NCBI GenBank assembly: GCA_035703405.1
Contig: DASSYG010000365.1
Location: 1 to 30,924 of the forward strand
DNA: 30,924 nt
Direction of reading: 5' to 3'
Origin: Acidimicrobiales bacterium
GTDB lineage: Bacteria > Actinomycetota > Acidimicrobiia > Acidimicrobiales > Iamiaceae
The position numbers were made by a program, and so were the translations under genes. Positions 4,115 to 20,722 of the stretch are shown piece after piece. The notes under the pieces are model-generated. The model ran no database searches, had not been told where the DNA came from, and worked only from the letters and a program-made list of their open reading frames with translations. How positions within the stretch are numbered: the stretch's first letter is position 1; every line of letters starts with the position of its first letter.

Positions 4115-4386
4115 CCGAAGGCGAGTGGCAACTTGCGGTCGCGGCCGCGGCGGATCGCACGTTGCAGCGTCTGCCTGCGAAGGTCGCCGCGCCGGTTGTC
4201 GAGTTCATGGTTGGGCCGCTGTGTGCATCTCCGCAGCGTGTCGGTCATCCGTTGCGACGGGAAGTCACGGGTGCCTACTCGGCCCGTCGAGGTGCCTACC
4301 GAATCCTCTACGAGTTGGACGAGGAAACTCGGACCGTTCAGGTCTTGCGTATCGAGCACCGCGCAGACGTCTATCGGCCACGGTGA
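4111..4386 (+). CDS. relE: Type II toxin, RelE/ParE family
   Basis: 91 aa, 4-nt overlap with the antitoxin stop; GHPLR...YSARRGAYRILY...IEHRADVYR. Confidence 0.88.
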   Translation: MTEGEWQLAVAAAADRTLQRLPAKVAAPVVEFMVGPLCASPQRVGHPLRREVTGAYSARRGAYRILYELDEETRTVQVLRIEHRADVYRPR

Positions 4387-4419
4387 CCTCTTGGTCTGCC
4401 GGTACCGGGTTGGGGCTGT

Positions 4420-5166
4420 TCAGATCCGACCGGTGAAGTCCTGGCCGAACGGCGACCCTGCCGGGCCTGAGTCTGGTGACGCGTCTGCAGCAGGGCCGGC
4501 CCCAGCAGGCGGTGCCGGATCGGCGGAGGGACTCCGTTCCGCGAACGCCGCGATGTTCGATGCGTCCTGTTCGAGCCTGGCGAGGATCCGGTGCACCGCG
4601 CCCGGGGTGATCTCCAGCGCCCGGGCGAGCCGGTCGAGCATCGTGCGATTGGTCAGCGACAGGTCCCCGGTGGCCGTGGCGACATGCCCGATGTCGATCA
4701 CCAGGCGTTCCCTTGCGGTCGGCTCCATGTCGATCGTCAATTGGTGTGCTTCGTCTACGACATTGGAAACGTCCATGCTGCGCAGGTCGGCGTCGAGATC
4801 GGTCGTCGAGTAGTGGTGCATGCCCGCCCCCTGGATCACGGTGACGGCCACGCGCCGCGTCGGCTCGTCGTAGGGGTCGCCGTCGAGCACGGCCAGCACG
4901 GTCGCGGCACGGGTGAGGCGTTGGAGCCGGGTGGCGAGATCCGAGGTAGGAGGAGAGGTGAGCACGTGTTCGTCATAGACGCGGTGGCATCCCTGGCATA
5001 CGTACACCTCGGCGGTGATGTCCCGAGGAATGAGTGGGATCACGATGTGGTACCAGTTTCGGGATCGGCGATGGCGATAGACCCGCTCCGAGCCGCATCC
5101 GGGGCAGTAGAACGTGCCGGTCTCCCGGTCGTGCCAGCGTTCGAAGGTGCCCACCCTTGTGCTCAC
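4420..5166 (-). CDS. Zinc-ribbon plus TerB-like domain protein
   Basis: CPGC...IPLIP...CQGC zinc ribbon followed by a helical domain ending LARALEIT, resembling TerB. Confidence 0.7.
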   Translation of the reverse strand: MSTRVGTFERWHDRETGTFYCPGCGSERVYRHRRSRNWYHIVIPLIPRDITAEVYVCQGCHRVYDEHVLTSPPTSDLATRLQRLTRAATVLAVLDGDPYDEPTRRVAVTVIQGAGMHHYSTTDLDADLRSMDVSNVVDEAHQLTIDMEPTARERLVIDIGHVATATGDLSLTNRTMLDRLARALEITPGAVHRILARLEQDASNIAAFAERSPSADPAPPAGAGPAADASPDSGPAGSPFGQDFTGRI

Positions 5167-5949: not shown

Positions 5950-7842
5950 TCAGTCCAGTCGAGCGGTGACCGCGTCGACGATGCCGTTGGCGTCGAGTCC
6001 GGCGTCGGCGAGCAACTCTTCGGGGTTGCCGTGGGTGACGAACTCGCGGGGCAGCCCCAGGTTGATCACCCAGGGAGGGTGCGCGGCGCCGTCTCGGGCA
6101 GCCACCGCGACGATGCGCGCGCCCATCGTCGCGCCGACGCCACCTTCGACGAGGCCGTCTTCGATGGTCACCACGACATCGTGGTGCGCGGCGTTGGCGA
6201 TCAGCGCCGGGTCGGGCGGCTGCACGACCCGCGGATCCCACACGGTCACCGCGATGCCCGCTTCGGCGAGTCGATCCGCGGCGGCGACCGCTTCGTCGAG
6301 CAGTTTGCCGACACCGATCAGACAGACTCGGGCGGCTTCGTCCGCGCGCACGAGGCGCCCGGCGAATCCTGACCCGACGGCGTGTTCGTCGCCCATGACC
6401 GCCGGGGTGCGCGGGTAGCGGATCGTCACAGGGCCATCGGCTGATTCGACGGCGTCGTGCAGCATCTGCTGGAGCTCCTGGTACGACGAAGGCACGAGCA
6501 CGGTCATGCCGGGCACCTTCGACATCCACACCAGGTCGAACATGCCGTGGTGAGAGGCGCCGTCGGGCCCGGTCAGCCCGGCCCGGTCGATCGCGAAGAT
6601 CACCTTCTGGCCGTGCAACGCGACGTCGTAGATGCTCTGGTCGAGCGCCCGGGTGAGAAAGGTCGAGTACAGCGCGACGACGGGGCGCAGCCCGGCCATG
6701 GCCATGCCCGCAGCGGCGGTCACCGCATGTTGTTCGGCGATGCCGACGTCGATGAGTCGATCGGGAAAACGGTCACCGAAGGCGAGCAACCCGGTCGAGC
6801 CGGGCATCGCCGCGGTGATCGCCACGATCTCGGGGTGGGCGTCGGCCTCCTTGATGAGCGCCTCGGTGAACGCGCCGGTGTAGGAGGGCGGGCCGCCGGG
6901 CACATGTTGGGGGCCGATCTCGGGGTTGAACCGGGGCGCGTCGTGCAGACACTTCTCTTCGTCGTCTTCGGCGGGCGGGTAGCCACGCCCCTTCTGGGTC
7001 AGCACGTGCACCACGACCGGACCGTCGGGGTAGTCGGCCGCGTTGCGCAGCGCCTTCTCGAGGGATTCGACGTCGTGGCCGTCGAAGGGGCCGGCGTAAC
7101 GCACGCCGAGCGTTTCGAAGAACGCGGTGGGTTCGATCATGTCGCGCAGACCGGTGAGTGCGCCCTCGATGCCCCAGGCGAGATGGTCGCCCACGACGGG
7201 CACGTCTCGCACGATGCGCGACATCTTCGCCCGTTGCCGCAGATACGACGGGTGCATCCGCAGACGTGCCACGCCTTCGGAGATGCGCGACACGGTCGGG
7301 GCGTAGCTGCGGCCGTTGTCGTTGAACACGATGATGGCGCGGCGGCCCGAATGGCCGAGGTTGTTGAGGGCCTCGTACGCGAGCCCGCCGGTCATGGCGC
7401 CGTCGCCGAGCACGGTGACCACACGCCGGTCGTGCACGCCGAGGTGTTCGAACGCAGTGGCGATACCGAACGCGTAGCTCGCGCCGGTGGATGCGTGGGA
7501 GTTCTCGATCCAGTCGTGATCGGATTCGGCCCGACTCGGGTAGCCCGACATGCCGCCGGGCTGGCGCAGGTGCTCGAATCCATCCTGGCGACCGGTGAGG
7601 ATCTTGTGCACGTAGGCCTGGTGCCCGGTGTCGAACAGCAGGACGTCGTCGGGGGAGTGGAACACCCGGTGCAGGGCGAGGGTCAGCTCTACGGCGCCGA
7701 GGTTGGAGCCCAGGTGGCCGCCGTTTGCGGCGACCGAGGTGACGATGAAATGCCGGATCTCCGCGGCCAGCGCGTCGAGCTCGGCATAGTCGAGCCGCCG
7801 CAGATCGCGGGGAGAGTTGATGCTGGAAAGATACTCGGGCAC
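5950..7842 (-). CDS. dxs: 1-deoxy-D-xylulose-5-phosphate synthase
   Basis: 630 aa; GGHLGSNLGAVEL, DTGHQAYVHK, GDGAMTGG, DVGIAEQHAV, DGASHHG. Confidence 0.97.
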   Translation of the reverse strand: MPEYLSSINSPRDLRRLDYAELDALAAEIRHFIVTSVAANGGHLGSNLGAVELTLALHRVFHSPDDVLLFDTGHQAYVHKILTGRQDGFEHLRQPGGMSGYPSRAESDHDWIENSHASTGASYAFGIATAFEHLGVHDRRVVTVLGDGAMTGGLAYEALNNLGHSGRRAIIVFNDNGRSYAPTVSRISEGVARLRMHPSYLRQRAKMSRIVRDVPVVGDHLAWGIEGALTGLRDMIEPTAFFETLGVRYAGPFDGHDVESLEKALRNAADYPDGPVVVHVLTQKGRGYPPAEDDEEKCLHDAPRFNPEIGPQHVPGGPPSYTGAFTEALIKEADAHPEIVAITAAMPGSTGLLAFGDRFPDRLIDVGIAEQHAVTAAAGMAMAGLRPVVALYSTFLTRALDQSIYDVALHGQKVIFAIDRAGLTGPDGASHHGMFDLVWMSKVPGMTVLVPSSYQELQQMLHDAVESADGPVTIRYPRTPAVMGDEHAVGSGFAGRLVRADEAARVCLIGVGKLLDEAVAAADRLAEAGIAVTVWDPRVVQPPDPALIANAAHHDVVVTIEDGLVEGGVGATMGARIVAVAARDGAAHPPWVINLGLPREFVTHGNPEELLADAGLDANGIVDAVTARLD

Positions 7843-8186
7843 TTCGATCGCCTCGAAAGGGTGGCTTCACGGCACGCCCGGGAAGGCGGAGCTGCCGACG
7901 ATCCAGGTTACTCCGCGAGCCGCCGCTCCGTCGCGCCGGGGCGCACGGTTGGCCGATGCCGGCGCGTGTGGCGAGAACGCGAAGAGACTGTTCGCCCGTG
8001 GATTATCTGACGGCGGCAGCGCGAAAACCGTGAGGTGCTCGAAAGCAAGCGTGGTCGACAAACATTTCGAGGTCTGCATCCGTGTGCTTGACACGAGGGG
8101 TAATCTCATTGGTGACGGCTTCTATCGTATGGGGATTGTCGTGTCGGCGGGGGGCTGACGTGGCGCTTCGTGAGGAGATTCAGGCA

Positions 8187-8927
8187 ATGGCGGGTGCGCG
8201 GGTTGGGGTGGTGTTGGTTTCGTTGGTGGTTGTCGGAGCGGGCGTGTTGGTGCCCGCGGGCACGTCGTTTGGTTCGGGGCCGTCGTCGGTGTCTGGGTCG
8301 GGTTCTTCGACGTCGGCTCCGGGTACGACTACGTCGAGTTCGATTGCGGGAAGCGGTTCTGTGGCGTCGGGTTCGTCGTCGAGTGTGCCCGAGGCGTCGG
8401 TGCCTGTGCCGGGTACGGCTCCTGGCCCGGAGGTGAATTCGGGTGTCCAGGGGTCGGACGATGAGCCTTTCAGGGTTGATCGGTGGGGGGTGCCGTCGTC
8501 GTCGGGTCTTCTGTCCGGGGTTTCGACTGGCGGGAGTGCTGGTCCTGGGTTGCTATCGGTGTCTGGGGATCATGCAGTTGAGTATGCGGATGCGGTGATC
8601 GGGACCTCAGGATTGGCTGGGTACTGGCGGTTGCATGGGGTGTCTGATGTCGCGGATCGGTCGTCTGGTGGTCACGATGGGGTGATCACTGCGCTTGATC
8701 CGACGCCGGAAGATAATGTGCCGGTGGATCCGGCGGACATATTTTCGACGGCGGTTGGTGGTGGGGTGTGGCCGGGCTCGGATGCATTGAAGCTGGACCG
8801 TGTTGAGCAGATTGCGGGTGGGGTCGCGGTTGGTTCTGATTGGTTCGATCAGACTGTCTGGTCGGCGGAGGGTTGGGTGAAAGACACTCAAGAGGATCAA
8901 TTGGGTGTCGGTGTTTTCGATCAGTAG
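8187..8927 (+). CDS. RHS toxin segment 1: signal peptide, Ser/Gly/Pro linker, start of LamG domain
   Basis: MAGARVGVVLVSLVVVGAGVLVPA hydrophobic leader; YADAVIGTSGLAGYWRL opens a LamG-like domain. Confidence 0.7.
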   Translation: MAGARVGVVLVSLVVVGAGVLVPAGTSFGSGPSSVSGSGSSTSAPGTTTSSSIAGSGSVASGSSSSVPEASVPVPGTAPGPEVNSGVQGSDDEPFRVDRWGVPSSSGLLSGVSTGGSAGPGLLSVSGDHAVEYADAVIGTSGLAGYWRLHGVSDVADRSSGGHDGVITALDPTPEDNVPVDPADIFSTAVGGGVWPGSDALKLDRVEQIAGGVAVGSDWFDQTVWSAEGWVKDTQEDQLGVGVFDQ

Positions 8928-11900
8928 TCGAACAATGAGAGTGCGTCTTGGCGGCGGAGCTTGTCCTCGAATGGCGCTGAATCGTCGAGTGATGTGCGCG
9001 TCGCTGCGTATCGTTATTCGAATCCTTCTAGCATCGGTGTTCAGGGTTCGATGTCGGTGGGTGGTTGGCATCAGGTTTCGGTTGTCGATGATGGTTCGAT
9101 GTTGACTTTGTTCGTCGATGGCGTGCCGGTCGCTTCGGTTACCGAGGCGGCCGTGGCTTACCCGGCGGGGTCGGCCTTGTGGTTGGCCTGGTTCACGAAT
9201 GGGTGTGACTGTAGGCGTGGCGTCGCGTACATGAGTGACATTTCGGTGTATTCGGAGGCGCTGCCACCGGGCGTGATCGCGGAGCATTATCAGGCCGCGG
9301 GTGGGGTGTTGCCGTTGAGCTACGCGAATCTTATGGGTGAGTCGAATCCGTCGATGTCGTGTTATTCATGTTCGGCCGGCACGATTCGTCAGCAGATCGG
9401 TGCTCCGGTGAACGCGCAGACCGGCAACTTTTCGCATTCGTTCGACGATATCGGGTTGCCCGGTCGAGGCCCGGAGTTGGGGGTTTCCCGAACGTACAAT
9501 TCGTTGGCTGCGGTGATGCCCGACGAGGGATCCTCGGCGCCGGAGGTGGGTTTCGGGTCGGGTTGGTCTTGGAATTATGGGAGTCATCTGGTGTTCGATG
9601 CGACGGCGCCGGTCCCGGTCGATCCTGGCGACCCGTCGCCTGATCCGGAGACGGGGCCGAACCTGATCGGGTTTGTCCAAGAGAACGGTTCAGAGGTGCT
9701 GTTTTCTCAAGACGGCACGGGTGCGTGGGTGTCTCCGTCGAATGTATTCGCGACACTGGCCCACAATCTGGATGGCTCGTGGACGGTCGTGCGTGCGGAT
9801 ACGGCCACGTTCACGTTCGACGCGGATGGCCGCCTGATCGGTGAATCGGATAGGAACGGGTATCAGATTTCGTTGTCGTGGCCGTCGAGTTTCCCGGGTG
9901 CCGTGGTGGTGACTGGTGCGTCGGGTGCGACGTTGTCGATTGAAGTGAACGGCGATGGCCTGGTGACTTTGGTGACCGATTCGGTCGGGCGGAGCGTCAG
10001 CTACGGCTATGCCGACTGGATTTTGAGGTCGGTGTCATCGTTGGCTGGCGGTTCGTGGACCTACAGTTATGGTCCAGGTGACTTGATGACGTCGATGACC
10101 GATCCGTTCGGTGGTACCGTAGCAAATAGTTACGATGGTATGGACCGGGTCGTTGCCCAATGGGGGCCGGTCGCGGCGGCGAACGCGGTTGGTGAACCCT
10201 CGGATACCGCGTCGGCGACGACGTTCGATTATTCGATTCTGAACGAGACGACGATCACCGATCCGACAGGTCGGATCGAACGACAGACCTTCCGGCAGGG
10301 CTATTTGGTATCGGACACGATCGGCACGGGCGCTGGCGCGTCGACGAGCATGTTCGAGTACGACGCGGTCACCTCCGGGCAGGCGAGGATGACCGATGCG
10401 TCCGAGAACGTGACCGAAACAACCTATTTCGAGCAAGGTTGGATCAAATCGACGACCGATGGTGCCGGGAACACCACCAATTTCGGAGGATACAACGCTT
10501 TCGGTGAACCTGGCACGGTCACTGACCCGTCCGGGGTGACGACCACCTACAGCTATGACGTGCACGGCAATGTGACTTTGGTGTCCACGCCGTGGAACAC
10601 CCACCCTGGCCAGCCTGCTCTCACACACTACGCGTATGACACGACCTATCCAGGTGATTTGCTCCAGACCGTCGAAGCCGACGGGACCGTCACCGAGTTC
10701 AGCCATGACCCGGCCACGGGGCAGGTCACCTCGGTGATCGGTCCCGACGGGGAGACCACCTTTGGCTACGACCAGGCCGGTCACCGGACATGGTCGATTT
10801 CACCGGCAGGCAACACAGCCGGTGGAACACCGAGTGAGCATCGAAGTGTTGGGGTGGTGAACCCCGCGGGTCAGATTCTCGAGTCGTTGGATCCGCTTGG
10901 CGAGCCGGTCGCAGATGGTTTCCTGCGCTCCGGCACGAGTCTGGGGATCAGCGCTACCGGTGAGACCTGGGACGTCCGGTCGGGGAGCTGGGCGGTAACG
11001 CCGGGCGTGGCGTCGGTGACTGGCACCGCTGGTGGGGTGGCGTTGGCGACCATTCCGAATCCTGGCGATCCGAGCGATGGTGCGGTGGCGTCTATGATCG
11101 TGGCCGATGGCACGTCGAATTATGCAGGTCTTGCGTTCCGGGTGAAAGGTGCCGACAATTACTGGTTTCTCCGACAGGTTCCGGTGTTTGGTGGTCTGGC
11201 CATGTACAAGACCGTTGGTGGGGTGACCACGTTCGTGGCCGGCTATGAGACCGGTCTCACCACGGGGGACCGGATCATGGTGTCATCGGTCGGCTCCAAG
11301 ATCGCCGTGTATCGCAACGGCGCGCGACTCGATGTGCTCGGTGGATCCGGTGAGGTCACCGACACCGACCTGGACACTTTCGCAACGACCGGGTTGATCG
11401 GCTTCTCGGCCGGACCGGTCGCATCCGGGTTCTCCAACCACACCCCAAGCGGTGGGGTCACCGATGCCTGGTTCGACGAGGCCGGTCGTGTCCTGAAAAC
11501 TGCTGGGCCGCGCCTTGTTGCGTCGGGGGAAGAGATCACCAGGGTTGTCTATGACGCCGGGGGAAGGGCGGTCAAAACCACCGACGCGAATGGTCACGCG
11601 ACAGCCAGTGAGTATGATCTGGCGGGACGGGTCGTCACCCAACGGGTCGGGGTGACGGGCTCGGATCCGAACGGGTCGGGTTCGACCAGCTACGCCTATG
11701 ATTCCCAGGGCCGGGTCGCGTCCACGCAGGCCGGTGGGAAGCCTGCAGTTGAATTTGTTTACACCGATGCGTCCGGGTCGAATCCAGCCACGCGAGTGGT
11801 GACCGAACCGTCCGGGGCGACGGTGACGACCGTGTTCGATACGGCGAGTCGGCCGTCGAGGGTCACCTATTCGGATGCGACACCGATGGTGAGCTTCACG

Positions 11901-12731
11901 TATGACGAGAATGGTCGGGTCACGAGCGAGGATTCGGCCGGGTCGGGGGCAGATGTGGTCAGTAGCTATGACTCCTTGGGGCAGGTCGCGTCGGTGACGC
12001 GGGCTCAGCGGTTGGTCAGATATATCTATGATCGGCCTGGTCGGATCTCCAAGATCAAGTATCCTTTCGGGAATGTGATCACACGCGGCTATGACCCCAA
12101 GGGACGGTGGGACACGGTCACCGACTGGAACGGCCAGACCACCAGCTTCGCCTACGATGCCGATGGCAATATCGCCGCCGTCACGACACCGAACGGAGTG
12201 ATCGCCACTCGCAGCCATGACGCGAACGGCGCGATCGACCACATCAGCATCGATGATGCCACGACCAGTATCGCGGACTGGGAATATGCCCGTGACCAGG
12301 CCCAGAACCTGACCGGGGTCAGCGCTACTGGTGTTGGTGGGAACCACACCTGGGATTATGACGCGGCCGGAAATCTCACCAACCAAGCCGGGACACCCGC
12401 CGAGTCCTACGCGTACGATCCGTCCAACCAACCTGTCACGGTCGGCGACACCGCGCAGGCCTTCGACGCATCGGGTGAAATCTGTTGGACCTCACCGATC
12501 GCCGCAGCCGGCGCCGCCCGGGACTGTTCCGACAAACCCTCAGGCGGGGCAAGCTTTCACTACAACGACAACGGACAACGCACCGGGGAAGGCGCGACCG
12601 GGCTCTATCACTGGAATGCCGCGGGCCAACTGACCTGGTCAGGACGCCACGTCGCGACCGCGTACCGCTACGATCCAGCAGGGCTGCGCACCCAAGCCAC
12701 CTACAACGGCTCCTACCACCGCTACTCCTAG
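8928..12731 (+). CDS. RHS toxin segment 2: end of LamG, RHS core start (PVNAQTGN at 9405), YD repeats, inserted beta-sandwich domain
   Basis: GWHQVSVVDDG..LFVDG (LamG); GAPVNAQTGNF...SRTYNS; many YDxxGR/GN repeats. Confidence 0.88.
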   Translation, partial: SNNESASWRRSLSSNGAESSSDVRVAAYRYSNPSSIGVQGSMSVGGWHQVSVVDDGSMLTLFVDGVPVASVTEAAVAYPAGSALWLAWFTNGCDCRRGVAYMSDISVYSEALPPGVIAEHYQAAGGVLPLSYANLMGESNPSMSCYSCSAGTIRQQIGAPVNAQTGNFSHSFDDIGLPGRGPELGVSRTYNSLAAVMPDEGSSAPEVGFGSGWSWNYGSHLVFDATAPVPVDPGDPSPDPETGPNLIGFVQENGSEVLFSQDGTGAWVSPSNVFATLAHNLDGSWTVVRADTATFTFDADGRLIGESDRNGYQISLSWPSSFPGAVVVTGASGATLSIEVNGDGLVTLVTDSVGRSVSYGYADWILRSVSSLAGGSWTYSYGPGDLMTSMTDPFGGTVANSYDGMDRVVAQWGPVAAANAVGEPSDTASATTFDYSILNETTITDPTGRIERQTFRQGYLVSDTIGTGAGASTSMFEYDAVTSGQARMTDASENVTETTYFEQGWIKSTTDGAGNTTNFGGYNAFGEPGTVTDPSGVTTTYSYDVHGNVTLVSTPWNTHPGQPALTHYAYDTTYPGDLLQTVEADGTVTEFSHDPATGQVTSVIGPDGETTFGYDQAGHRTWSISPAGNTAGGTPSEHRSVGVVNPAGQILESLDPLGEPVADGFLRSGTSLGISATGETWDVRSGSWAVTPGVASVTGTAGGVALATIPNPGDPSDGAVASMIVADGTSNYAGLAFRVKGADNYWFLRQVPVFGGLAMYKTVGGVTTFVAGYETGLTTGDRIMVSSVGSKIAVYRNGARLDVLGGSGEVTDTDLDTFATTGLIGFSAGPVASGFSNHTPSGGVTDAWFDEAGRVLKTAGPRLVASGEEITRVVYDAGGRAVKTTDANGHATASEYDLAGRVVTQRVGVTGSDPNGSGSTSYAYDSQGRVASTQAGGKPAVEFVYTDASGSNPATRVVTEPSGATVTTVFDTASRPSRVTYSDATPMVSFTYDENGRVTSEDSAGSGADVVSSYDSLGQVASVTRAQRLVRYIYDRPGRISKIKYPFGNVITRGYDPKGRWDTVTDWNGQTTSFAYDADGNIAAVTTPNGVIATRSHDANGAIDHISIDDATTSIADWEYARDQAQNLTGVSATGVGGNHTWDYDAAGNLTNQAGTPAESYAYDPSNQPVTVGDTAQAFDASGEICWTSPIAAAGAARDCSDKPSGGASFHYNDNGQRTGEGATGLYHWNAAGQLTWSGRHVATAYRYDPAGLRTQATYNGSYHRYS

Positions 12732-13667
12732 GACGACACCTCCGGTGTGCCCCAACTTATCGGCGACCAGAACCCGGCCCACAACCTCACCTATCTCTAT
12801 GGACCAGATGGGTTGCCTTTCGAACAGATCGACACGGTCACCGCCACCAGCACCTGGTTCCACCAAGACGCGACCGGATCGATCCGCTGCACCACCGACG
12901 ACACCGGCACGTTGACCTCCACCCAAACGTTCACCCCCTGGGGCGAATCGGTCGATTCCACCGGCACCCCACCCCGCCTCGGCTACAAATCCAAACAAAC
13001 CGACCCCTCCGGACTCATCTACCTCCAAGCCCGCTACTACGACCCAGAAACCGCCCAATTCCTCAGCGTCGACCCCCTCGCCCCCATCACCCACACCCGA
13101 TACGGCTACACCAACAACAACCCCCTCAACGGCGCGGACCCGAACGGGCTGGTTGTGCAAGGATTCTGTCTGAGCGCGTCTGTCGGGTCGGTGCTGGCAA
13201 TTGAAGGCCAAGCATGTATCGTAAGCGACGGCGTACACTCAGGCGTCTTGGTTATTAGTGGAGTAGGGTCCGGAACGCCTCAGGCCTCGATAGCGGGCGC
13301 TCTATTTATGAGTTCGGCCGATTCCGTTTTCGATCTTTCAGAAACTCAAGGCTGTCTTACGGCTCAGGGGGGTGTCGGGCCCGGAGTGGCAGCTGAATTG
13401 TGTATCGGGCGTGATGGATCCGACTCGTCTATCTTTGTGCACGTAGGTGGTACAATTGAGCCTGGCGGCTCTATGTCTGGGGGAGTATATACCGCGAAAT
13501 ACTATTCGTTCTCGGAGATATTTGGAAATTACCTTAGGAAGATATTCGGCTGTGAGCCTGGACCTTCGCCGACCCGCCACCACCGAAACCCCGACGGAGG
13601 TTGGGGAAGTGGTGGAGTTTCTCCGAACATGGATGGTAATGGTCTTCCGCTGCCGCCCCGAGGCTAA
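12732..13667 (+). CDS. RHS toxin segment 3: RHS-associated core end plus C-terminal effector domain (13152..13667)
   Basis: TFTPWG, GLIYLQARYYDPETAQFLSVDP, YGYTNNNPLNGADPNGL, then a 171-aa variable tip ending in TAA. Confidence 0.88.
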   Translation, partial: DDTSGVPQLIGDQNPAHNLTYLYGPDGLPFEQIDTVTATSTWFHQDATGSIRCTTDDTGTLTSTQTFTPWGESVDSTGTPPRLGYKSKQTDPSGLIYLQARYYDPETAQFLSVDPLAPITHTRYGYTNNNPLNGADPNGLVVQGFCLSASVGSVLAIEGQACIVSDGVHSGVLVISGVGSGTPQASIAGALFMSSADSVFDLSETQGCLTAQGGVGPGVAAELCIGRDGSDSSIFVHVGGTIEPGGSMSGGVYTAKYYSFSEIFGNYLRKIFGCEPGPSPTRHHRNPDGGWGSGGVSPNMDGNGLPLPPRG

Positions 13668-13689
13668 CATTCAACTACGGATACAACTC

Positions 13690-14178
13690 ATGCCAAATGA
13701 CGTAATCATGACACCACGGATCTGGAGTTCCTTCTCCAGGATCTTCCCATCATTCGTGATTCTGCTTTCTGGGCCGCTCTTCCATGTTATTGGGTTCCCC
13801 ATATTGCCGATTGTGCCCATCACCATTCTATTCGGGATATTAGCCATCATAATTAGCGTGAGTGGAACGCCACGTTACATCATCTCGGGCGTTGATGCCA
13901 TTACATGTCGCATGTGGTCTGGTGCATCTATATTACTGGATGCGGAAGAAACACTTCTCTACAGCGGCGGTGGCTGGTACTGGCAAGTATTTTCCGGATG
14001 GCTTCTGGTAGATGGATCTGACAATGCTGTGTTTGTGCCAGCTCGTCCGACTAACTACACTGAGTGGCTGGGGCATGCGCAGGCTTCCGGGCTGCAAATC
14101 GTCGAACAGCGACCCGTTATTCAAAATGGGAGCACAAGTGCACTTCGCACAGCTCTTAGGAGTCTTTCGAATCGATGA
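13690..14178 (+). CDS. Putative immunity protein, about two N-terminal TM helices plus a soluble domain
   Basis: ATG 22 nt after the toxin stop; 162 aa; hydrophobic FVILLSGPLFHVIGFPILPIVPITILFGILAIII; low GC (25/60 G+C in 13801-13860). Confidence 0.65.
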   Translation: MPNDVIMTPRIWSSFSRIFPSFVILLSGPLFHVIGFPILPIVPITILFGILAIIISVSGTPRYIISGVDAITCRMWSGASILLDAEETLLYSGGGWYWQVFSGWLLVDGSDNAVFVPARPTNYTEWLGHAQASGLQIVEQRPVIQNGSTSALRTALRSLSNR

Positions 14179-14226
14179 CAAGAGGTCAGATCAGGCGGCA
14201 ATCCCCTTCCAAGGATTATGCAGGCG

Positions 14227-14243
14227 GGGTCTGCTGTGGGTTA
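14227..14243 (-). mobile_element. Probable right-end stub of the IS3-family relic, cut off by IS630
   Basis: On the minus strand the relic sequence resumes across the TA target as ...accatcgacc|TA|acccacagcagaccc; assignment as an IS3 end is from resemblance only. Confidence 0.4.
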
Positions 14244-15353
14244 GTGGTCCGTCGCGGATTTGGTGACGTGGTCGAGTTTGGCTCGTCCGCGTTTGACTTT
14301 GGTGATGATTTCTTTCGCGGTTTTGGTCCACACGAAGGGTTGGGGGTCGTCGTTCCAGTGTGAGACCCACAGGTCGAGTGCGTCGGTGAGTTGGTCGACG
14401 GAGGTGAACACGCCGTGTTTGAGGCGCTTGTTCGTGAGCTGAGCGAACCAGCCCTCGACCAGGTTCAGCCACGACGAGCTCGTCGGGGTGAAGTGGAGGT
14501 GCCATCGCTTCTGGCGGGGTTTCGCGAGCCATGCTTTGACCTCGGCGGACTTGTGTGCCGACAGGTTGTCCAACACGACATGGACCTCGAGGTCGCGGGG
14601 CGTGTGGGCATCGATCCAGCGGAAGAACGCCAACACGTCGGTGCTGGTGTGGGTCTTGCGGGTCTGGTGGAGCACTTCACCGGTGCCGACGTTCAACGCC
14701 GCGAACAAATCAGTGGTGCCGTTGCGCTTGTAGTCATGAGTCATCGTGCGGCCACGCCCGTTGATCATCGGCAGCGACGGCTGGGTCCGGTCCAACGCCT
14801 GGACCTGGGTCTTTTCGTCGAAGCTGAACACCACCGCCCGCTCAGGCGGGTTCAGATACAGGCCGACCACGTCAACCAACTTGGCTTCAAAATCCGGGTC
14901 GGTCGACAGCTTGAACGTCTCCACACGCCACGGTCGCAGTTTCCGGGCCTGCCAGATCCGCGCCACGGTGTCCTTGCCCACCCCATGCCGTTCGGCCATC
15001 GTGCGCGTCGACCACGCGGTGGCTTGATCGTCAGGGATCGTGTGCAACGTGTCGTGAACGATCGCGTCGACCGTGGCTTGCGCGATGACCGGTTTGCGGC
15101 CCCGCCCCTCAGCGATCGACCCGACCGCGTCGATCCCACCTTCTTCGTACTTGCGCCGCCAGCGACGCACCGCGTTCGGAGTCGTCGAACACTGCCGAGC
15201 GATCTCCGCATTCGCGACACCGTCCGCGGCCAACACCAACGCCTTGGCCTGGGCCACCGTCCGATGAGGCAACGACGTCGAACACGCCAACCGCTTCAAC
15301 GCCTTACGTTCTCTGCGGGACACGTTCAACCGGGGAGCAGTCTGGATCGGCAT
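14241..15353 (-). CDS. tnp: IS630-family transposase
   Basis: N-terminal HTH; DDE motifs FSFDEKTQVQAL, VVLDNLSAHK, SWLNLVEGWF. Start at ATG 15353 or at 15377. Confidence 0.95.
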   Translation of the reverse strand: MPIQTAPRLNVSRRERKALKRLACSTSLPHRTVAQAKALVLAADGVANAEIARQCSTTPNAVRRWRRKYEEGGIDAVGSIAEGRGRKPVIAQATVDAIVHDTLHTIPDDQATAWSTRTMAERHGVGKDTVARIWQARKLRPWRVETFKLSTDPDFEAKLVDVVGLYLNPPERAVVFSFDEKTQVQALDRTQPSLPMINGRGRTMTHDYKRNGTTDLFAALNVGTGEVLHQTRKTHTSTDVLAFFRWIDAHTPRDLEVHVVLDNLSAHKSAEVKAWLAKPRQKRWHLHFTPTSSSWLNLVEGWFAQLTNKRLKHGVFTSVDQLTDALDLWVSHWNDDPQPFVWTKTAKEIITKVKRGRAKLDHVTKSATDH

Positions 15354-15396
15354 GCCCTCAAGCCTAACCCACGCCACTATTTAAGCGACGGACCAT
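14244..15396 (-). mobile_element. IS630-family insertion sequence, apparently intact, 1153 bp
   Basis: Terminal IRs gtggtccgtcgc (14244-14255) and gcgacggaccat (15385-15396), 11/12 complementary; TA on both sides (14242-14243, 15397-15398). Confidence 0.9.
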
Positions 15397-15398
15397 TA

Positions 15399-15578
15399 GG
15401 TCGATGGTGGTTGTGAGTGATAATGCGGCGTTGGTGTCGGCGTCGTGATCGGTGGTGAAGGCGAGTTCGTACTCGACTGGGGTGAGCCGGCCGAGGCGGC
15501 GTTGCCGGCGGCGGCGGTTGTATCGGGTCGAGAAGCGGTGAAGTTCCGTTGCACCAGATCATCGTGCACCGCCGGTCC
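15399..15578 (-). pseudogene. Internally deleted IS3-family transposase (OrfB) relic
   Basis: GPAVHDDLVQRNFTASRPD (start of the IS3 integrase core) joined out of frame to YNRRRRQRRLGRLTPVEYE (IS3 OrfB C-terminus). Confidence 0.75.
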
Positions 15579-15672
15579 CAGAGGCAGGATCACGATGCCC
15601 CTGGGTGCTGCCCGCGGGCACAAGGCGGCACCGCTGTTCCCTCGTGGTGGCCTGGGCCGCTACCCGCCTCGA

Positions 15673-16659
15673 TCAAGCGGGTGCGTCGGCATCGCCGTGG
15701 TGCGGCACGCCCGCAGCCGCGCTGGTCGCGGCAGGCGAGACGAGGCGCTTGGCGTCGCGGCGGTCGGCCCAGCGATGCGTCGCGAGGGCGAGCTGCCAGC
15801 CGAGAACTGTTCCCACCCCGAGGGTGACCAGCCCACCGACCGCGTCGAGCCAGTAGTGGTTGGCGGTGATGAGAATGCAGAACAGCGTCGCGAACGGGTA
15901 CAAGATCACCAGCCCCTTGACCCAACGGCGGCGTGCCCGCGGGGCCACGACGATCGCGCACCACGTCGACCAGCCGATGTGCAGGCTCGGCATCGCCGCG
16001 AACTGGTTCGAGACCTGGGCCATCGCGGTGCTCCCGAAGCTCCACAGACCACCGAACGACTCGAGTGTGTCGATGAAGCCGAACTGGTGGCACGCGAGTT
16101 GCGGGTTCGCCGCGACGATCGACGCGGGCAGGCTGCAGCCGCCGAACTGGCCGGTGTGGTCGAGCAGTCGCGGGGGCATGAGCGAGAACGAGGCAAAGCC
16201 CACGAGTGCCACGATCGTGGTCAGCACGAGCGCGTTGCGCCAGACCGTGTAGTCGCGGGGGAACCGGCGGAACAGCCAGATCAACACGACGATCGGGATG
16301 ATGAAGTGGAACGACCCGTAATAGATGTTCCAGAACTTGATCAGTCCGTGTCCGGGCAGGCCCAGATACCACTCCTGCAGGCGGGGTTCGAAGAACAGCC
16401 CAAGATGCTTTTCGATGTTGATCACGTCGTGGGCATGACCGAGGGCGATGGCGACCGCGTCGGGTGACACCTTCGAACCGATCGAGCTTCCCGATGATCC
16501 GAACGTGTTGCGCACGAGGCTGTACACCTCGTACAGCACGAACACCAACAACAACTCGCGCCACCACCGCAGACGCCGCCGCGCGGTCGGCTCCTCGGGA
16601 AGGTCGCGCCAGTGGCGTTCGGTCTCGGTCGTGTCGAGCACGATCGATTCTGGTGCCAT
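15673..16659 (-). CDS. PAP2-superfamily membrane protein (PAP2_3, Aur1/IPC-synthase-like)
   Basis: PPRLL, FAAMPSLHIGWS and TANHYWLD motifs. ATG 16659 chosen because the longer ORF overlaps the upstream gene. Confidence 0.85.
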   Translation of the reverse strand: MAPESIVLDTTETERHWRDLPEEPTARRRLRWWRELLLVFVLYEVYSLVRNTFGSSGSSIGSKVSPDAVAIALGHAHDVINIEKHLGLFFEPRLQEWYLGLPGHGLIKFWNIYYGSFHFIIPIVVLIWLFRRFPRDYTVWRNALVLTTIVALVGFASFSLMPPRLLDHTGQFGGCSLPASIVAANPQLACHQFGFIDTLESFGGLWSFGSTAMAQVSNQFAAMPSLHIGWSTWCAIVVAPRARRRWVKGLVILYPFATLFCILITANHYWLDAVGGLVTLGVGTVLGWQLALATHRWADRRDAKRLVSPAATSAAAGVPHHGDADAPA

Positions 16660-16738
16660 CAGGCGCGGCCTCGGAAAGTGGTGAATGCCCCGGCCCGCGC
16701 CGGACCAGGCTCTCTGGGCATCCGGGGAGGATAAGGGA

Positions 16739-17224
16739 TCACGTCCCTGCGAGGCCAACGAAGCCACCGACGAGCAGGCCGTAACCGACATGGGCGACGA
16801 GCGTGACGAGCGCAGTCGAGTGGCCGTAGTTGCGCATCAAAAACCCGGGAGGTTCGAGCAGCGGCGCCTCACCGGCCGCGCTGAAATCGTCTCCCATCCT
16901 CGGATGCACCGCCGGCAGGACCACGTTGACCAGTGCCGTGGCCGAGAACACGCCGTGCGCGGCGCCGAAGGCCGCGCCGAGCAGCCAGCCCGTGTGCCCG
17001 ATGGCCTCGAACAGGCCGAAGTAGCCGAGGGCGAAGACGAGACCGAATCCGAAATGCGCCAGGTAGCCGATCAGCTTGGCGCGCCGCCGATCCGGGGTGA
17101 ACATCGTGCCGAGCAGAAATGGCAGGTCCATGCGGGTCAGCCGCGCTTCGCTCGCCGCACGCAGCACCGTGGTCAGCACGAGCGTGCCTGCGAAGCCCCC
17201 GGCCAATGCCGCCCAGATGCTCAC
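16739..17224 (-). CDS. Hypothetical integral membrane protein coupled to GH15
   Basis: 161 aa with about 4 hydrophobic helices; its GTG start overlaps the GH15 TGA. Confidence 0.75.
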   Translation of the reverse strand: MSIWAALAGGFAGTLVLTTVLRAASEARLTRMDLPFLLGTMFTPDRRRAKLIGYLAHFGFGLVFALGYFGLFEAIGHTGWLLGAAFGAAHGVFSATALVNVVLPAVHPRMGDDFSAAGEAPLLEPPGFLMRNYGHSTALVTLVAHVGYGLLVGGFVGLAGT

Positions 17225-19074
17225 CGTGTCGTCTCCTCGAGTGTCGTCTCGTGCGCCGCATCGGCGCGGGGTCGTTGCTCATCCAGGGCCAGCGCCGCAC
17301 CGATCAGCGCCAGGTGCGTGAGCGCCTGGGGAAGATTGCCGAGAAACGCGCCGGTTTCCGGGTCGATCTCCTCGGCGTAGATGCCGACATCGTTGCCGAG
17401 TGCCACGAGTTCGTCCATCAGCGCCACGGCCTCGTCGCGCCGTCCCTGGAGTGCCAGCGCCTCGACCAGCCAGAACGAACACGTCAGGAACGCACCCTCG
17501 TCGCCATCGAGTCCGTCTTCACCCGAATAGCGATACACGAACGGGCCGTGTCCGAGTTCACGCCGCACGGCATCCACCGTGGAGGTCATCCGCGGATCAT
17601 CCGGGGGCCGATAGCCGAACAACACCCCGAGCAGCAGGCTCGCGTCGAGGTCGTCGCTGTGCGCGCTTCGCAGGTAGGTCTGTCGATCCTGTGACCAGCA
17701 CTGATCGTCGACGAACGCGCGGACCGCCTGGCCCGTGGCCGTCCAGCGCCCGACGTGCCGGTTCGGGATCGCCCCTTGTGCGGCGAGGGCGACCGCACGA
17801 TCCAACGCGACCACACACATCATCTTGGACTGGGTGAACTGCGCCAGCTCGCCACGCACCTCCCACAGCCCCGCATCGGGTGCATCCCAGCGTTCGCACA
17901 CCAGGTCGGCGGTCGCCGCGAACCGCTTCGCGATGTCGGGGTCGATGCGTCGACCGCCGGCGGCGTACAGCCAGACGGTCTGCATCAGGTCGCCGTACAC
18001 ATCGAGCTGGAGCTGACCCGACGCCCCGTTGCCCACCCGCACCGGCGTGGAGCCGCGGTACCCGGGCAGCCCGAGGGACCGTTCACCCGAGTCCTCGCCG
18101 CCGTCCATCCGGTACAGCACCCGCAACTCAGGATGGGTCCGCTGCGACGCCTGCATGAGCCACCAGAAGAACGCGTCGGCCTCTGCGAACATCTCCAGAC
18201 CCAGGAACGCCCCGAGCACGAACGCCGAATCGCGGACCCAGCAGAAGCGGTAGTCCCAGTTGCGTTCACCGCCGATCTCCTCGGGCAGCGACGTGGTGGC
18301 CGCCGCCGCGATCGCACCCGTGGGCGCATACACGAGCAGTTTCAGCGCCAGGACGCTGCGAACGACCGCGTCGTGCCAGTGACCGGTGTTCCCCAGTGAC
18401 GACACGACGTTGCGCCACAGGCGCGTCGTCGCGTCCAGTCGAGCTTCCACGTCGGCGCGGGTCGGCGACACCAGCGGCCCCTGATGCGCGAACGCGAGCG
18501 CGCAAAGTGCGGTCGACGCCGGGGTGACCACGAAGGAGCCTTCGAACCCATCGTCGACGAGTTCGGCGGCGCCGAAGTCCCAACCGAACAGCGCCACCGC
18601 GTCCGCCCCGCAGGTCGCGACCGGCAGCGTGCCACCTCGCAGCGACAACTCGGTCTTCCGTTGGCCGAACGCGAAACGAGGCGTCAGGCGCCAACGCATC
18701 GTCACGGTTCCGGTGAGACCTTCGATGCGCCTGACGAGTTCACGTTGGGGAGCGAGGCGCCCGGTCGGCACCGTCATCGCATCGGTGATGCGCACACTGC
18801 CCGATGCGGTGTGAAAAGTCGCCTCCAGCACGTTGGTGTCGGGCACGTAGCGTCGCTCCACCGTGGACGGCTCGGTCGGGCACACCTCGAAGCGGCCGCC
18901 CCCCTCGGCGTCGAGGAGCGCGTCGAACACCCCGGGAGAATCGATGTCGGGCGCGCACAGCCAGTCGATCGAACCGTCGCGCGCCACGAGTGCCACGGTG
19001 CGCCCGTCACCGATCGCGGCGTAATCCTGCAGTGGTGCGTAGCCGGCGACTCTTGTCGGCGGCGCGGGCTTCAT
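17221..19074 (-). CDS. Glycoside hydrolase family 15 (trehalase/glucoamylase-like)
   Basis: YAAIGDGRTVAL, RNWDYRFCWVRDS, GLWEVRG, YAEEID, GNLPQALTHL. Confidence 0.93.
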   Translation of the reverse strand: MKPAPPTRVAGYAPLQDYAAIGDGRTVALVARDGSIDWLCAPDIDSPGVFDALLDAEGGGRFEVCPTEPSTVERRYVPDTNVLEATFHTASGSVRITDAMTVPTGRLAPQRELVRRIEGLTGTVTMRWRLTPRFAFGQRKTELSLRGGTLPVATCGADAVALFGWDFGAAELVDDGFEGSFVVTPASTALCALAFAHQGPLVSPTRADVEARLDATTRLWRNVVSSLGNTGHWHDAVVRSVLALKLLVYAPTGAIAAAATTSLPEEIGGERNWDYRFCWVRDSAFVLGAFLGLEMFAEADAFFWWLMQASQRTHPELRVLYRMDGGEDSGERSLGLPGYRGSTPVRVGNGASGQLQLDVYGDLMQTVWLYAAGGRRIDPDIAKRFAATADLVCERWDAPDAGLWEVRGELAQFTQSKMMCVVALDRAVALAAQGAIPNRHVGRWTATGQAVRAFVDDQCWSQDRQTYLRSAHSDDLDASLLLGVLFGYRPPDDPRMTSTVDAVRRELGHGPFVYRYSGEDGLDGDEGAFLTCSFWLVEALALQGRRDEAVALMDELVALGNDVGIYAEEIDPETGAFLGNLPQALTHLALIGAALALDEQRPRADAAHETTLEETTR

Positions 19075-19312
19075 CGTTGCCGAAGCTATCCACGCAACGG
19101 CCGAATCGTGCCTCGCACTCCGTCGGGCGGTGTGGGATCCGACCGGTTCTCGGGCGAATCGGTATCACCGAGACCGCCTCCGGCAGGGCGACGCGTTCGT
19201 GCCGGTACGATGAAGCGCCGGACCGCACGGCCGTCGACGACGCTCGACGGTGCCAGGTGCGGTGTGACCAGTTCGCGAGATGCGCCCGTGTGGGCGCGAC
19301 CAGGAGCCTTCG

Positions 19313-20722
19313 ATGTCCCTACCCGATCTGATCGACCACGACACCCTGTCGTCCACGTTGTCCGAGGCGTTGCGTACCGGCGGAGAGTTCGCCGAGATCT
19401 TCGCCGAAGACAAGTCTTCGACGTCTGCACACCTCGACGACGGCCGCATCGAAGAACTGGTCTCGGGCCGTGACCGAGGCGCGGGCATCCGGGTCGTGCG
19501 CGGTGAGACCACCGGGTTCGCCCACACCGCGGACCTGTCAGCCGTTGGCCTGGCCGCAGCGGCCCGGGCTGCGGCGGCGGCCGCACACAGCGACGACGGC
19601 GGCGTCCACGAGATCTCCCTCGACGCGCACCTGGTGGATCACCCCTCACCGCCCAAGGTGCGTCCCGGTGACGTCGCCAAGGCCGACAAGGTCGCCCTGT
19701 TGCAACGCGCCGATGAGGCCGCCCGGGCCGGAGGGGCCGAGATCTCCCAGGTAGCGGTGAACTACGGCGATTCGCGCCGCCGGGTACTGATCGCCAACTC
19801 CGACGGGCTGCTCACCGGCGATGATCAGACCCGCACGCTGTTCAGCGTCGGTGCGGTCGCCACTGGCGACACCGGCATGCAGACCGGTCGCGAAGCCATC
19901 GGCCACACGGTGGGTTACGAGCTGTTCGACCGTTACGACGTCGACGAACTCGCCCGGGCCGCGTCGCAACGCGCCCGTACCAAACTCGCCGCCCGTCCGG
20001 CCCCAACCGGTGAGATGCCCGTGGTGATCGGCCCCGGCGGCGGCGGCGTGCTGTTCCATGAAGCCTGCGGACACGGTCTCGAAGCCGACCTCATCGCCAA
20101 GGGCGCGTCGGTGTTCGCCGGTCGCCGCGGCGAGAAGGTCGCTTCGGAGCTGGTGACCCTGATCGACGACGGCACCGTCGCTGGTGAATGGGGCGCGTAC
20201 GGCGTGGATGACGAGGGCACCCCCGCCCAGCGCAACGTGCTGATCGAGAACGGAATCCTCACCGACTACATGTGGGACTTCCTGCGGGCCCGCAAGGAAG
20301 GCCGAGCGCGCTCTGGCAACGGACGCCGCCAGAACTACCAGTTCCTGCCGATGGTGCGCATGACCAACACGTTCATCTTGAACGGGCCCGACAACCCCGA
20401 CGACATCGTCGCCGGCACCGACCACGGCGTGTACGTCGCCAAGCTCGGCGGCGGTCAGGTCAACACCGCCACCGGCGACTTCGTGTTCGGCATGACCGAG
20501 GCGTACCTGATCGAGAACGGCCGCATCACCGAGCCGCTGCGAGAGGGCAACCTGATCGGCAACGGCCCGGGCGTGCTGGCCGCGATCGACGCCGTGGGCA
20601 ACGACTTCGCGTTCGGCCCGCCCGGAACGTGCGGCAAGGACGGCCAGGGCGTGCCGGTGGGTGACGGCGTTCCCACGCTGCGGGTCCCGACCGGTCTGAC
20701 CATCGGAGGCCAGGCGGCATGA
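19313..20722 (+). CDS. tldD: TldD metalloprotease subunit
   Basis: RBS caggag at 19301-19306; LFHEACGHGLEAD zinc motif, DDEG, RMTNT, CGKDGQGVPV. Confidence 0.93.
   Translation: MSLPDLIDHDTLSSTLSEALRTGGEFAEIFAEDKSSTSAHLDDGRIEELVSGRDRGAGIRVVRGETTGFAHTADLSAVGLAAAARAAAAAAHSDDGGVHEISLDAHLVDHPSPPKVRPGDVAKADKVALLQRADEAARAGGAEISQVAVNYGDSRRRVLIANSDGLLTGDDQTRTLFSVGAVATGDTGMQTGREAIGHTVGYELFDRYDVDELARAASQRARTKLAARPAPTGEMPVVIGPGGGGVLFHEACGHGLEADLIAKGASVFAGRRGEKVASELVTLIDDGTVAGEWGAYGVDDEGTPAQRNVLIENGILTDYMWDFLRARKEGRARSGNGRRQNYQFLPMVRMTNTFILNGPDNPDDIVAGTDHGVYVAKLGGGQVNTATGDFVFGMTEAYLIENGRITEPLREGNLIGNGPGVLAAIDAVGNDFAFGPPGTCGKDGQGVPVGDGVPTLRVPTGLTIGGQAA

Follow-up and report, generated by a model that had tools for sequence, protein, structure and literature searches.

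WapA of Bacillus subtilis is a Sec-exported, contact-dependent RHS/YD-repeat toxin of a Gram-positive bacterium, in which an N-terminal signal peptide and a YD/RHS shell precede a variable C-terminal toxin, the immunity gene being located downstream. Split RHS cocoons occur in the Tc toxins, where the TcB/TcC shell encapsulates a C-terminal toxin that is freed by the aspartyl protease motif of the core, and two polypeptides could, in principle, make up such a shell. Rhs pseudogenes and relics carrying premature stop codons are well known among the Enterobacteriaceae, in which accessory RHS toxins on variable, mobile-element-associated loci are degraded by such stops, sister genomes harbor either an empty site or fragmentary relics, and tips of low GC content are found with immunity genes (Jackson et al. 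2009, BMC Genomics 10:584; PMC2935791).

The locus described here was found in a soil MAG (432 contigs, 68% complete) whose host is an uncultured soil Acidimicrobiales-like actinobacterium; the window refers to the entire stretch of 30,924 nucleotides that was analyzed. It resembles the enterobacterial relics in all of the above respects, but differs from them in its actinobacterial host, in the lack of a vgrG/T6SS context, in the N-terminal signal peptide and LamG domain of its product, and in a decay which is at its first stage, with two point stops and no indels. The general architecture and the monoderm host are shared with WapA, which, in contrast, is intact, harbors cell-wall-binding repeats rather than LamG and carries tRNase tips, whereas the tip encoded here belongs to no known family. 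A comparison with TcB/TcC extends to the shell and the core motif; unlike in that system, the breaks observed here do not coincide with a subunit boundary and do not occur in relatives, and no TcA-like partner was seen in the window. As outlined below, the locus probably reflects the ordinary and recent decay of an RHS toxin gene through two single-base nonsense changes.

The interrupted gene and its island

Translation of positions 8187 to 13667 (forward strand) yielded a single frame of 1,826 codons without a frameshift, composed of 246 amino acids, a stop, 1,267 amino acids, a second stop and 311 amino acids followed by TAA, and the three ORF calls which a first-pass annotation had merged into one frame are, therefore, correctly joined. 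The ribosome-binding site that it had listed was also recognized, as a Shine-Dalgarno-like GAGGAG (8172 to 8177, forward strand) read directly from the sequence 9 nt upstream of the ATG at 8187. The first segment (8187 to 8924, forward strand; 246 codons) specifies an N-terminal hydrophobic signal or anchor, with the signal peptide being assigned by eye only, a Ser/Gly-rich linker and the start of a LamG/concanavalin-like domain. This domain (residues 213 to 362, positions 8823 to 9272, forward strand) was detected as Pfam PF13385 (Laminin_G_3) with an E value of 2.3e-6, above the gathering score, and returned 334 homologues in a representative search. It spans the first TAG (8925 to 8927, forward strand; codons GAT CAG TAG TCG), which, in agreement with the initial placement of this stop within LamG, occupies residue 247; the loop concerned is variable.

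The second segment (8928 to 12728, forward strand; 1,267 codons) comprises the remainder of LamG, DUF6531 (9399 to 9602, forward strand) and the RHS/YD-repeat shell, as assigned by Pfam and NCBIfam matches and by alignment to the homologue P0002, with a non-repeat domain inserted in the shell at about 10884 to 11441 (forward strand). Profile searches identified the RHS repeats both as PF05593 (seven stretches, E = 1.6e-48) and as TIGR01643 (E = 8.7e-26). The second TAG (12729 to 12731, forward strand) lies between TCC and GAC, such that the site reads CCTAGG, and it replaces a conserved Trp of the shell about 67 residues upstream of the Rhs-associated core. Downstream of it (12732 to 13151, forward strand) are the end of the shell and the core itself (12930 to 13151; TIGR03696, residues 1582 to 1655, E = 1.2e-17), which terminates in DPNGL, the intact DPxGL motif of the earlier description, and is followed by the variable tip. 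The uninterrupted frame expected of a functional RHS toxin was, accordingly, not found, being broken by TAG at 8925 and 12729. Since LamG spans the first stop, the RHS domains continue beyond it, and the alignment with a homologue of 1,848 amino acids is unbroken across the second stop, the three ORFs derive from a single ancestral gene and are not aligned by chance, with RHS repeats, DUF6531 and the Rhs-associated core kept in order downstream of LamG.

The C-terminal tip (13152 to 13667, forward strand) consists of 171 Gly/Cys-rich residues followed by TAA, and produced neither a Pfam match nor a convincing Atlas match; its only homologue found was the tip of P0002, with 54% identity. Because identity to the homologue of the congener G004 stops at residue 1669, the latter carries a different tip. 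An intact ORF of 162 amino acids with a GC content of 50% (13690 to 14178, forward strand), for which the frame and a hydrophobic membrane segment were checked, begins 22 nt past the RHS gene and is proposed to encode the immunity protein: it shares 36% identity (E = 3e-34) with the ORF directly downstream of the P0002 RHS gene, and accompanies the same tip at the only other locus which possesses it. Together, these genes form a low-GC, transposase-bounded island between dxs and a PAP2 gene, with dxs (5950 to 7842, reverse strand; Pfam DXP_synthase_N, E = 5e-99) as the left chromosomal flank and an IS630-type DDE_3 transposase gene (14241 to 15377, reverse strand; Pfam DDE_3 and HTH domains) at the right edge. 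On sequence grounds, the gene is classified as an accessory LamG-RHS polymorphic toxin with a putative immunity gene; no other RHS copy was found in the MAG.

A gene that is deliberately split, with its three ORFs translated separately and their products assembling the shell as TcB/TcC do, would find a candidate re-initiation codon in the GTG at 12747, six codons (15 nt) after the second TAG. The breaks fall inside folded units, however, in the middle of LamG and at the conserved Trp preceding the core, rather than at domain boundaries, an export signal is present only on the first piece of 246 amino acids, and no relative is split at these points, all of which renders such an arrangement very improbable.

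Codons of relatives at the two sites

Trp occupies the second site in 100 of 112 aligned homologues, in keeping with the earlier remark that aromatic residues are usual at this position, and is encoded by TGG in the relatives G004 (TCC TGG GAC) and L001 (ACC TGG GAC); the congeners G004 and G006 retain this codon in a near-identical surrounding context. At the first site, the nearest congener, G007, carries TAT (Tyr) and L003 carries TTC (Phe), while Ser or Val also occurs among the aligned relatives. Each stop is thus a single base away from a sense codon observed in a relative, as had been suggested from the window sequence. In each of the four relatives the frame is uninterrupted at these places (1,848 amino acids in L001, 1,824 in G003 and 1,110 in G007, and 778 codons in G004), and the stops are, therefore, not conserved. 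The homologue alignment that the first-pass annotation had recommended consequently returned sense codons at both sites.

The segment past the second stop (12732 to 13151) retains 82 to 88% amino acid identity to relatives. Against G004, dN/dS was 0.16 upstream of this stop and 0.10 to 0.19 downstream of it; against L001, it was 0.08 to 0.28 across all aligned segments from residue 384, the point at which this comparison begins, as the N-termini before it are non-homologous. The comparison of dN/dS around the stops that had been proposed thus gave equally low values on both sides of the second stop, with no detectable relaxed selection. The equally low values around the second stop argue that the nonsense changes are recent, and in the absence of both frameshifts and detectable relaxation they may be regarded as very recent.

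Under the proposed decay, the second TAG would have arisen through a G-to-A change of the conserved Trp codon, and the first would replace a residue of the LamG loop which is Tyr or Phe in relatives. Translation is predicted to end at residue 246, leaving a secreted stub devoid of shell and toxin, such that the toxin would be lost while the putative immunity gene is kept intact. Recent nonsense inactivation had been one of three readings offered in the first-pass annotation, and it is the best supported of these, given the intact relatives, the one-base codon changes and the unrelaxed dN/dS. If a single chromosome had decayed purely neutrally, two nonsense hits within 5.5 kb unaccompanied by any indel would be a slightly odd outcome, which could be explained by alleles that are not linked or by an artefact at one of the sites.

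The coincidence of two stops of the same type, which had been presented as remarkable, is not so: the codon content of the gene directs 54 to 58% of one-step nonsense routes to TAG, and the chance of both stops being TAG is about 0.3. A single mutational mechanism common to both stops was also rejected, since the congener codons differ in kind, with TAT to TAG being a third-position transversion and TGG to TAG a second-position transition. Deamination of 5-methylcytosine at a CCWGG site, as suggested previously for the second stop, fits the geometry, as relatives carry CCTGG where CCTAG is found here and the mutated G:C pair lies in the CCWGG context. The first site lacks this context, however, no C5-cytosine methyltransferase (PF00145) was matched in the incomplete genome, and genome composition showed neither depletion of CCWGG (O/E 1.09) nor enrichment of CCTAG/CTAGG (O/E 1.05), and a Dcm-type origin was, therefore, rejected.

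TAG as a terminator in this genome

Programmed amber read-through or suppression, whether by near-cognate, suppressor or pyrrolysine tRNAs, would allow full-length toxin to be produced only if both TAG codons were decoded, thereby constituting a dosage or bet-hedging switch. This second reading of the first-pass annotation is consistent with a frame which is open and well conserved past both stops, with the identity of both stops as TAG and with the intact immunity ORF, although an open downstream frame is expected in any case of a very recent mutation. The sense codons present in every relative at the stop sites argue against it. Furthermore, TAG terminates 142 of the 1,377 confident ORFs of this MAG (about 10%), and TAG-bridged pairs account for 6 of 40 stop-bridged ORF pairs, which is no excess over this 10% baseline; four of the six represent different adjacent genes and two are uninformative. 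A test based on a Shine-Dalgarno sequence and start codon was too weak to separate adjacent from broken genes, as 24 of the 40 pairs lacked a clear combination of the two, and Pfam was used for this purpose. None of the 10 pairs thus checked genome-wide, among which 8 were informative, proved to be a broken gene.

These counts lend no support to a genome-wide reassignment of TAG, and the earlier statements that housekeeping genes contain no internal TAG and that genome-wide recoding is unsupported both hold in the genome-wide screen. The search for a CUA-anticodon tRNA and pyl genes advised at the outset was negative within the 68%-complete MAG: a CUA anticodon was absent from the 35 tRNAs found, PylS was not matched, and PylB yielded only a 45-bit radical-SAM match, below the 348-bit cut-off. 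Decoding by pyrrolysine or a suppressor tRNA is, accordingly, not supported; the present gene resembles such recoding solely in bearing in-frame UAG codons in an otherwise open gene, and differs from it in that UAG is not kept by its homologues, serves as a normal terminator and is accompanied by no decoding genes among those recovered in the MAG. Read-through of TAG in E. coli is lower than that of TGA (PMC11126739), and two successive stops would multiply the loss. We thus attach very little probability to a read-through switch, and the interpretation of the first-pass annotation is partly supported, chiefly as regards nonsense inactivation. The variant in which both TAG codons are real and reside on one chromosome, with low-rate read-through due either to near-cognate tRNAs or to a suppressor whose gene lies in the third of the genome that was not assembled, is regarded as similarly far-fetched; if true, a rare subpopulation would make the full toxin while all cells are immune, and a costly weapon would be gated by two amber codons as a form of bet-hedging.

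Base support and the locus among kin

An alternative to the proposed decay, raised in the first-pass annotation as assembly error, is that one stop, most likely the second, or both represent a read error or rare-variant base that was taken into the MAG consensus at a position covered by no more than one or two reads, in which case the gene would contain one stop or none. The k-mer depth over the gene is about 3 to 8 (about 5x overall), and about 9% of its sampled words are absent from the contigs of the run. A Logan contig covering 12376 to 12729 stops at the T of the second TAG, with depth in the bin falling thereafter, and a run search with a 61-nt stretch in which every 31-mer contains base 12730 listed no sequencing run. 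The second TAG, therefore, has no independent k-mer support, whereas the first does, being carried with zero mismatches by a Logan contig (8900 to 10051) that was assembled independently from this run. The suspicion of assembly error is, as a result, unlikely to apply to the first stop but retains some force for the second. Random errors, moreover, create stops only about 4 to 5% of the time and would be expected to be evenly spread, while no in-frame stop interrupts the remaining coding sequence of the window (roughly 25 kb), none of the 8 informative stop-bridged pairs corresponded to a broken gene, and both stops fall in the one gene class known to decay. A low-coverage artefact is, in our estimation, an unlikely explanation, though appreciably more plausible than read-through or a split gene.

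Genuine nonsense changes thus remain the favored explanation, and these are probably not fixed in the population. Logan contigs terminate precisely at 8925 and 12729, the base that precedes the A in either TAG, which suggests that reads disagree at those bases. Alternative letters at 8926 or 12730 were not listed in the comparison, which covered the assembler contigs of the source run; JGI metagenome contigs, scanned with patterns in which the stop bases were replaced by N, yielded 0 matches, and a 200-amino-acid query across the second stop recovered only the ORF of the window itself and distant fragments. Being separated by 3.8 kb and unphased, with a depth of about 5x, the stops may even reside on distinct chromosomes within the population that was sampled; at such depth, a MAG consensus can merge variants that are unphased, or that come from a single read, into a "double-hit" gene. 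Should the stops prove polymorphic, the locus could offer a natural example of a toxin being lost, and immunity retained, in a soil population. The appropriate annotation is that of a pseudogene or disrupted allele, and neither that of three ORFs nor that of evidence for recoding; beyond this the finding matters little.

The RHS locus also decays in kin of the same genus, and as such displays RHS toxin decay at three stages in one uncultured genus. In G002, G003 and G007, dxs directly adjoins PAP2 and no RHS gene intervenes, which represents an empty site; the present genome carries the point-broken gene with an intact immunity ORF; and a fragmentary relic is found in the sister species G009 (dxs 92% identical), in which the same dxs-PAP2 locus retains only about residues 103 to 167 and 810 to 1099 of the gene.

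Architecture of the interrupted RHS frame

The LamG-RHS toxin gene (positions 8187 to 13667, forward strand) had been described in the first-pass annotation as one frame broken by two TAG codons, a description borne out by translation, domain content and homologue alignment. When read with X at the stop positions, the frame comprises 246 aa, a stop, 1267 aa, a second stop, 311 aa and a terminal TAA, and a GAGGAG box is located 9 nt upstream of the ATG on the same strand. The first stop, TAG-1 (8925 to 8927, forward strand; GAT CAG TAG TCG), is spanned by a single domain, as the Pfam Laminin_G_3 match extends from residue 213 to 362; this is followed, in the usual order, by DUF6531, seven RHS-repeat stretches and the Rhs-associated core (residues 1582 to 1655), which ends in DPNGL. 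The second, TAG-2 (12729 to 12731, forward strand; TCC TAG GAC, creating CCTAGG), is crossed without a gap by the alignment to P0002, the 1848-aa RHS homologue encoded at locus L001 of the related genome G006, and no frameshift occurs within the 5.5-kb gene. As judged from the sequence, the three ORF pieces thus represent one gene. A TcB/TcC-like split gene is not a credible reading, because the middle and last ORFs carry no export signal and each stop interrupts a folded unit.

A strong composition gradient was apparent at the four-fold degenerate sites along 8187 to 13151 of the gene, with C 0.08, G 0.61 and T 0.26 in its first 600 nt, C 0.61, G 0.23 and T 0.04 at gene positions 4201 to 4800, and C of approximately 0.5, G 0.35 and T 0.08 in host genes. 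As this 5′ G/T-rich bias is common to the LamG regions of relatives (C 0.06, G 0.64 and T 0.27 in that of the congener G007), it is a family trait rather than a local accident.

Conservation, age and coding meaning of the stops

Alignment to relatives revealed sense codons at both sites. Tryptophan occupies site 2 in 100 of the 112 homologues aligned over this position; the congener G004, which shares 80% amino acid identity with the window across residues 1042 to 1669, reads TAC TCC TGG GAC GAC against TAC TCC TAG GAC GAC in the window, and L001 reads ACC TGG GAC. TAG-2 is thus one G-to-A substitution in the codon of a conserved Trp. Site 1 is located in a variable loop following the WSAEGWV strand of LamG and is Tyr in G007 (GAG TAT TCG), Phe (TTC) in a relative among the Logan contigs (independent assemblies of sequencing runs) and Ser or Val in remoter relatives; any of several sense codons, each one step away, may have been ancestral here. 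Because all four relatives remain open through both regions (1848, 1824, 1110 and 778 codons), both stops are private to the assembly of the window. The nearest LamG relative (L003:90-1052, 51% identity), a Logan contig from another run, carries a TGA directly behind the LamG domain, 15 nt from the contig end, while another frame continues with faint resemblance to the next residues of the window; it may carry a frameshift or be another relative with a broken gene.

Against G004 (dS 0.7 to 0.9), dN/dS was 0.16 before stop 2 and 0.10 to 0.19 after it, being equally low on both sides without downstream relaxation. Against L001 it was 0.08 to 0.28 in all aligned segments from residue 384 onward, the tip included; dN/dS is unusable for residues 1 to 383, which are not homologous to the L001 N terminus. 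These low downstream values, coupled with the absence of frameshifts, indicate that the region downstream of the stops was under purifying selection for almost its whole history, and that the stops are recent, occupying, as a rough bound, at most about a sixth of the branch. Among the options initially put forward, recent nonsense inactivation is therefore the one favored by the private stops, the low downstream dN/dS and the lack of frameshifts.

The proposal that amber read-through acts as a dosage switch did not withstand the comparison, as the stops are unconserved and TAG is a normal terminator, which together make a strong case against recoding and equally against a programmed switch. 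In the set of ORFs that have the high-GC coding signature and are 150 codons or longer, TGA, TAG and TAA terminate 1211, 142 and 24, respectively, and same-frame coding stretches joined over a single stop (32 TGA, 6 TAG and 2 TAA) are proportional to this use. Pfam analysis of every TAG pair (six) and of four TGA pairs detected no broken gene among the ten; eight were informative, each comprising two different adjacent genes (e.g., FtsE and FtsX, or TetR and RPE65). No CUA-anticodon tRNA was present among the 35 tRNAs and tmRNA identified by ARAGORN in this 68%-complete MAG, nor was PylS matched, and PylB returned only a sub-threshold radical-SAM match; such absences from a genome of this completeness are no proof. 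In E. coli reporters, read-through decreases in the order TGA, TAG, TAA (PMC11126739), and with two read-through events required, the loss would be multiplied.

That the gene was hit twice by the same stop type is unremarkable: TAG is the product of 54 to 58% of one-step nonsense routes from its own codons under equal, transition-weighted and GC-to-AT-weighted models, giving a probability of approximately 0.29 to 0.33 that both stops are TAG. The suggested deamination of a methylated CCWGG site has the correct geometry at site 2, where relatives carry CCTGG, and may apply there only; no C5-methyltransferase was found in the 68%-complete MAG, and neither depletion of CCWGG (observed/expected 1.09) nor enrichment of CCTAG (1.05) is seen.

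Base support at the stops

Base support was judged from Logan contigs of the source soil run X1, in which k-mer depth across the gene is 3 to 8. TAG-1 is present without mismatch in a contig spanning 8900 to 10051, which argues against an artefact at this stop; this contig and its left neighbour wholly account for the depth of the TAG-1 bin. Two listed contigs terminate at exactly 8925 and 12729, the T of each TAG, and the chance of both is estimated at about 1e-3 or less, even when several possible ways of coinciding are generously allowed for. De Bruijn contigs end where k-mer support falls once the next base is included, and we infer, rather than observe, that reads disagree at 8926 and 12730; no alternative letter at either position was listed among the contigs of the source run.

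As depth drops past 12729, and as a run search with 61 nt placing base 12730 in every 31-mer found no holder among the listed runs, fewer than two source-run reads probably carry the A of TAG-2. This stop could, therefore, stem from an error or represent a rare variant, and the assembly-error option stays live for this stop; uniform error is disfavored by the approximately 25 kb of other coding sequence in the window and by the genome-wide screen, neither of which contains broken genes. Overall, we consider it rather unlikely that at least one stop is artefactual and highly improbable that both are. Should both be genuine, they are probably polymorphic, and, as the sites are unphased and lie 3.8 kb apart, the consensus may have joined two different alleles that each carry one hit. 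The feature is accordingly assigned as a recent disruption, possibly still segregating, of an accessory RHS toxin by nonsense codons in a low-coverage MAG: a correctly observed but ordinary finding.

Island decay and the likely toxin-immunity module

No contig is longer than the window in its soil metagenome MAG (2.73 Mb, 432 contigs, 67% GC), which the dxs gene places among uncultured Actinomycetota, near Acidimicrobiales MAGs. The RHS gene (GC 0.60 to 0.62), the only one found in the 68%-complete MAG, lies between dxs (5950 to 7842, reverse strand) and a 162-aa ORF (13690 to 14178, forward strand; GC 0.50), followed by an IS630-type transposase (14241 to 15377, reverse strand) and a PAP2 gene. 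In the congeners G002, G003 and G007 (L018, L019 and L020), dxs adjoins PAP2 with no intervening RHS gene, a homologue of window ORF 19280-20722 then following; compared with window 7843 to 19074, the RHS-immunity-IS630 block is missing, as are the DUF6789-like ORF and GH15 gene (16739 to 19074), which are present in the sister species G009. In G009 (dxs 92% identical, flanks 85 to 87% nucleotide identity), the equivalent place (L017:7983-13416, contig C197) holds fragments of the RHS gene only, namely a 326-aa ORF matching residues 810 to 1099 (77% amino acid and 81% nucleotide identity) and a weak match to residues 103 to 167. This locus, a small graveyard of RHS parts, also contains approximately 2 kb of DNA at 42 to 56% GC and a gene for a 747-aa RCC1-repeat product. 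Based on the empty sites and the G009 fragments, the island was gained in the G000/G009 lineage (G000 being the MAG itself) and is decaying, the window representing the first stage and G009 the relic stage. Enterobacterial rhs loci, with their pseudogenes, relics and premature stops, follow the same pattern (PMC2935791).

Translation would stop at residue 246, leaving a product made up of signal peptide, linker and one third of the LamG domain, with no shell, core protease or toxin; toxin function would presumably be lost. The 171-aa Gly/Cys-rich tip (13152 to 13664, forward strand) matched no Pfam family, nor any Atlas cluster convincingly. Together with its membrane-type partner ORF (13152 to 14178), it co-occurs in one other known locus only, L001:8204-9229 of a ‘PE_dung20’ MAG, where the RHS gene bears an N-terminal Choice_anch_L domain instead of LamG and an IS3-type transposase then follows the pair. 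Because the 162-aa ORF shares 36% identity with the ORF behind this sole other gene with a matching tip, it is likely to be the immunity gene. The ORF is intact, and the cell would lose its weapon yet keep immunity, as commonly happens at polymorphic toxin loci. The final 26 residues of the two tips are nearly identical. Elsewhere, six RHS core-end matches were observed within 14 kb of contig C8 of the congener G008 (229 to 243 kb; L007 and neighbours), an arrangement resembling an array in which core-end and tip modules have been displaced.
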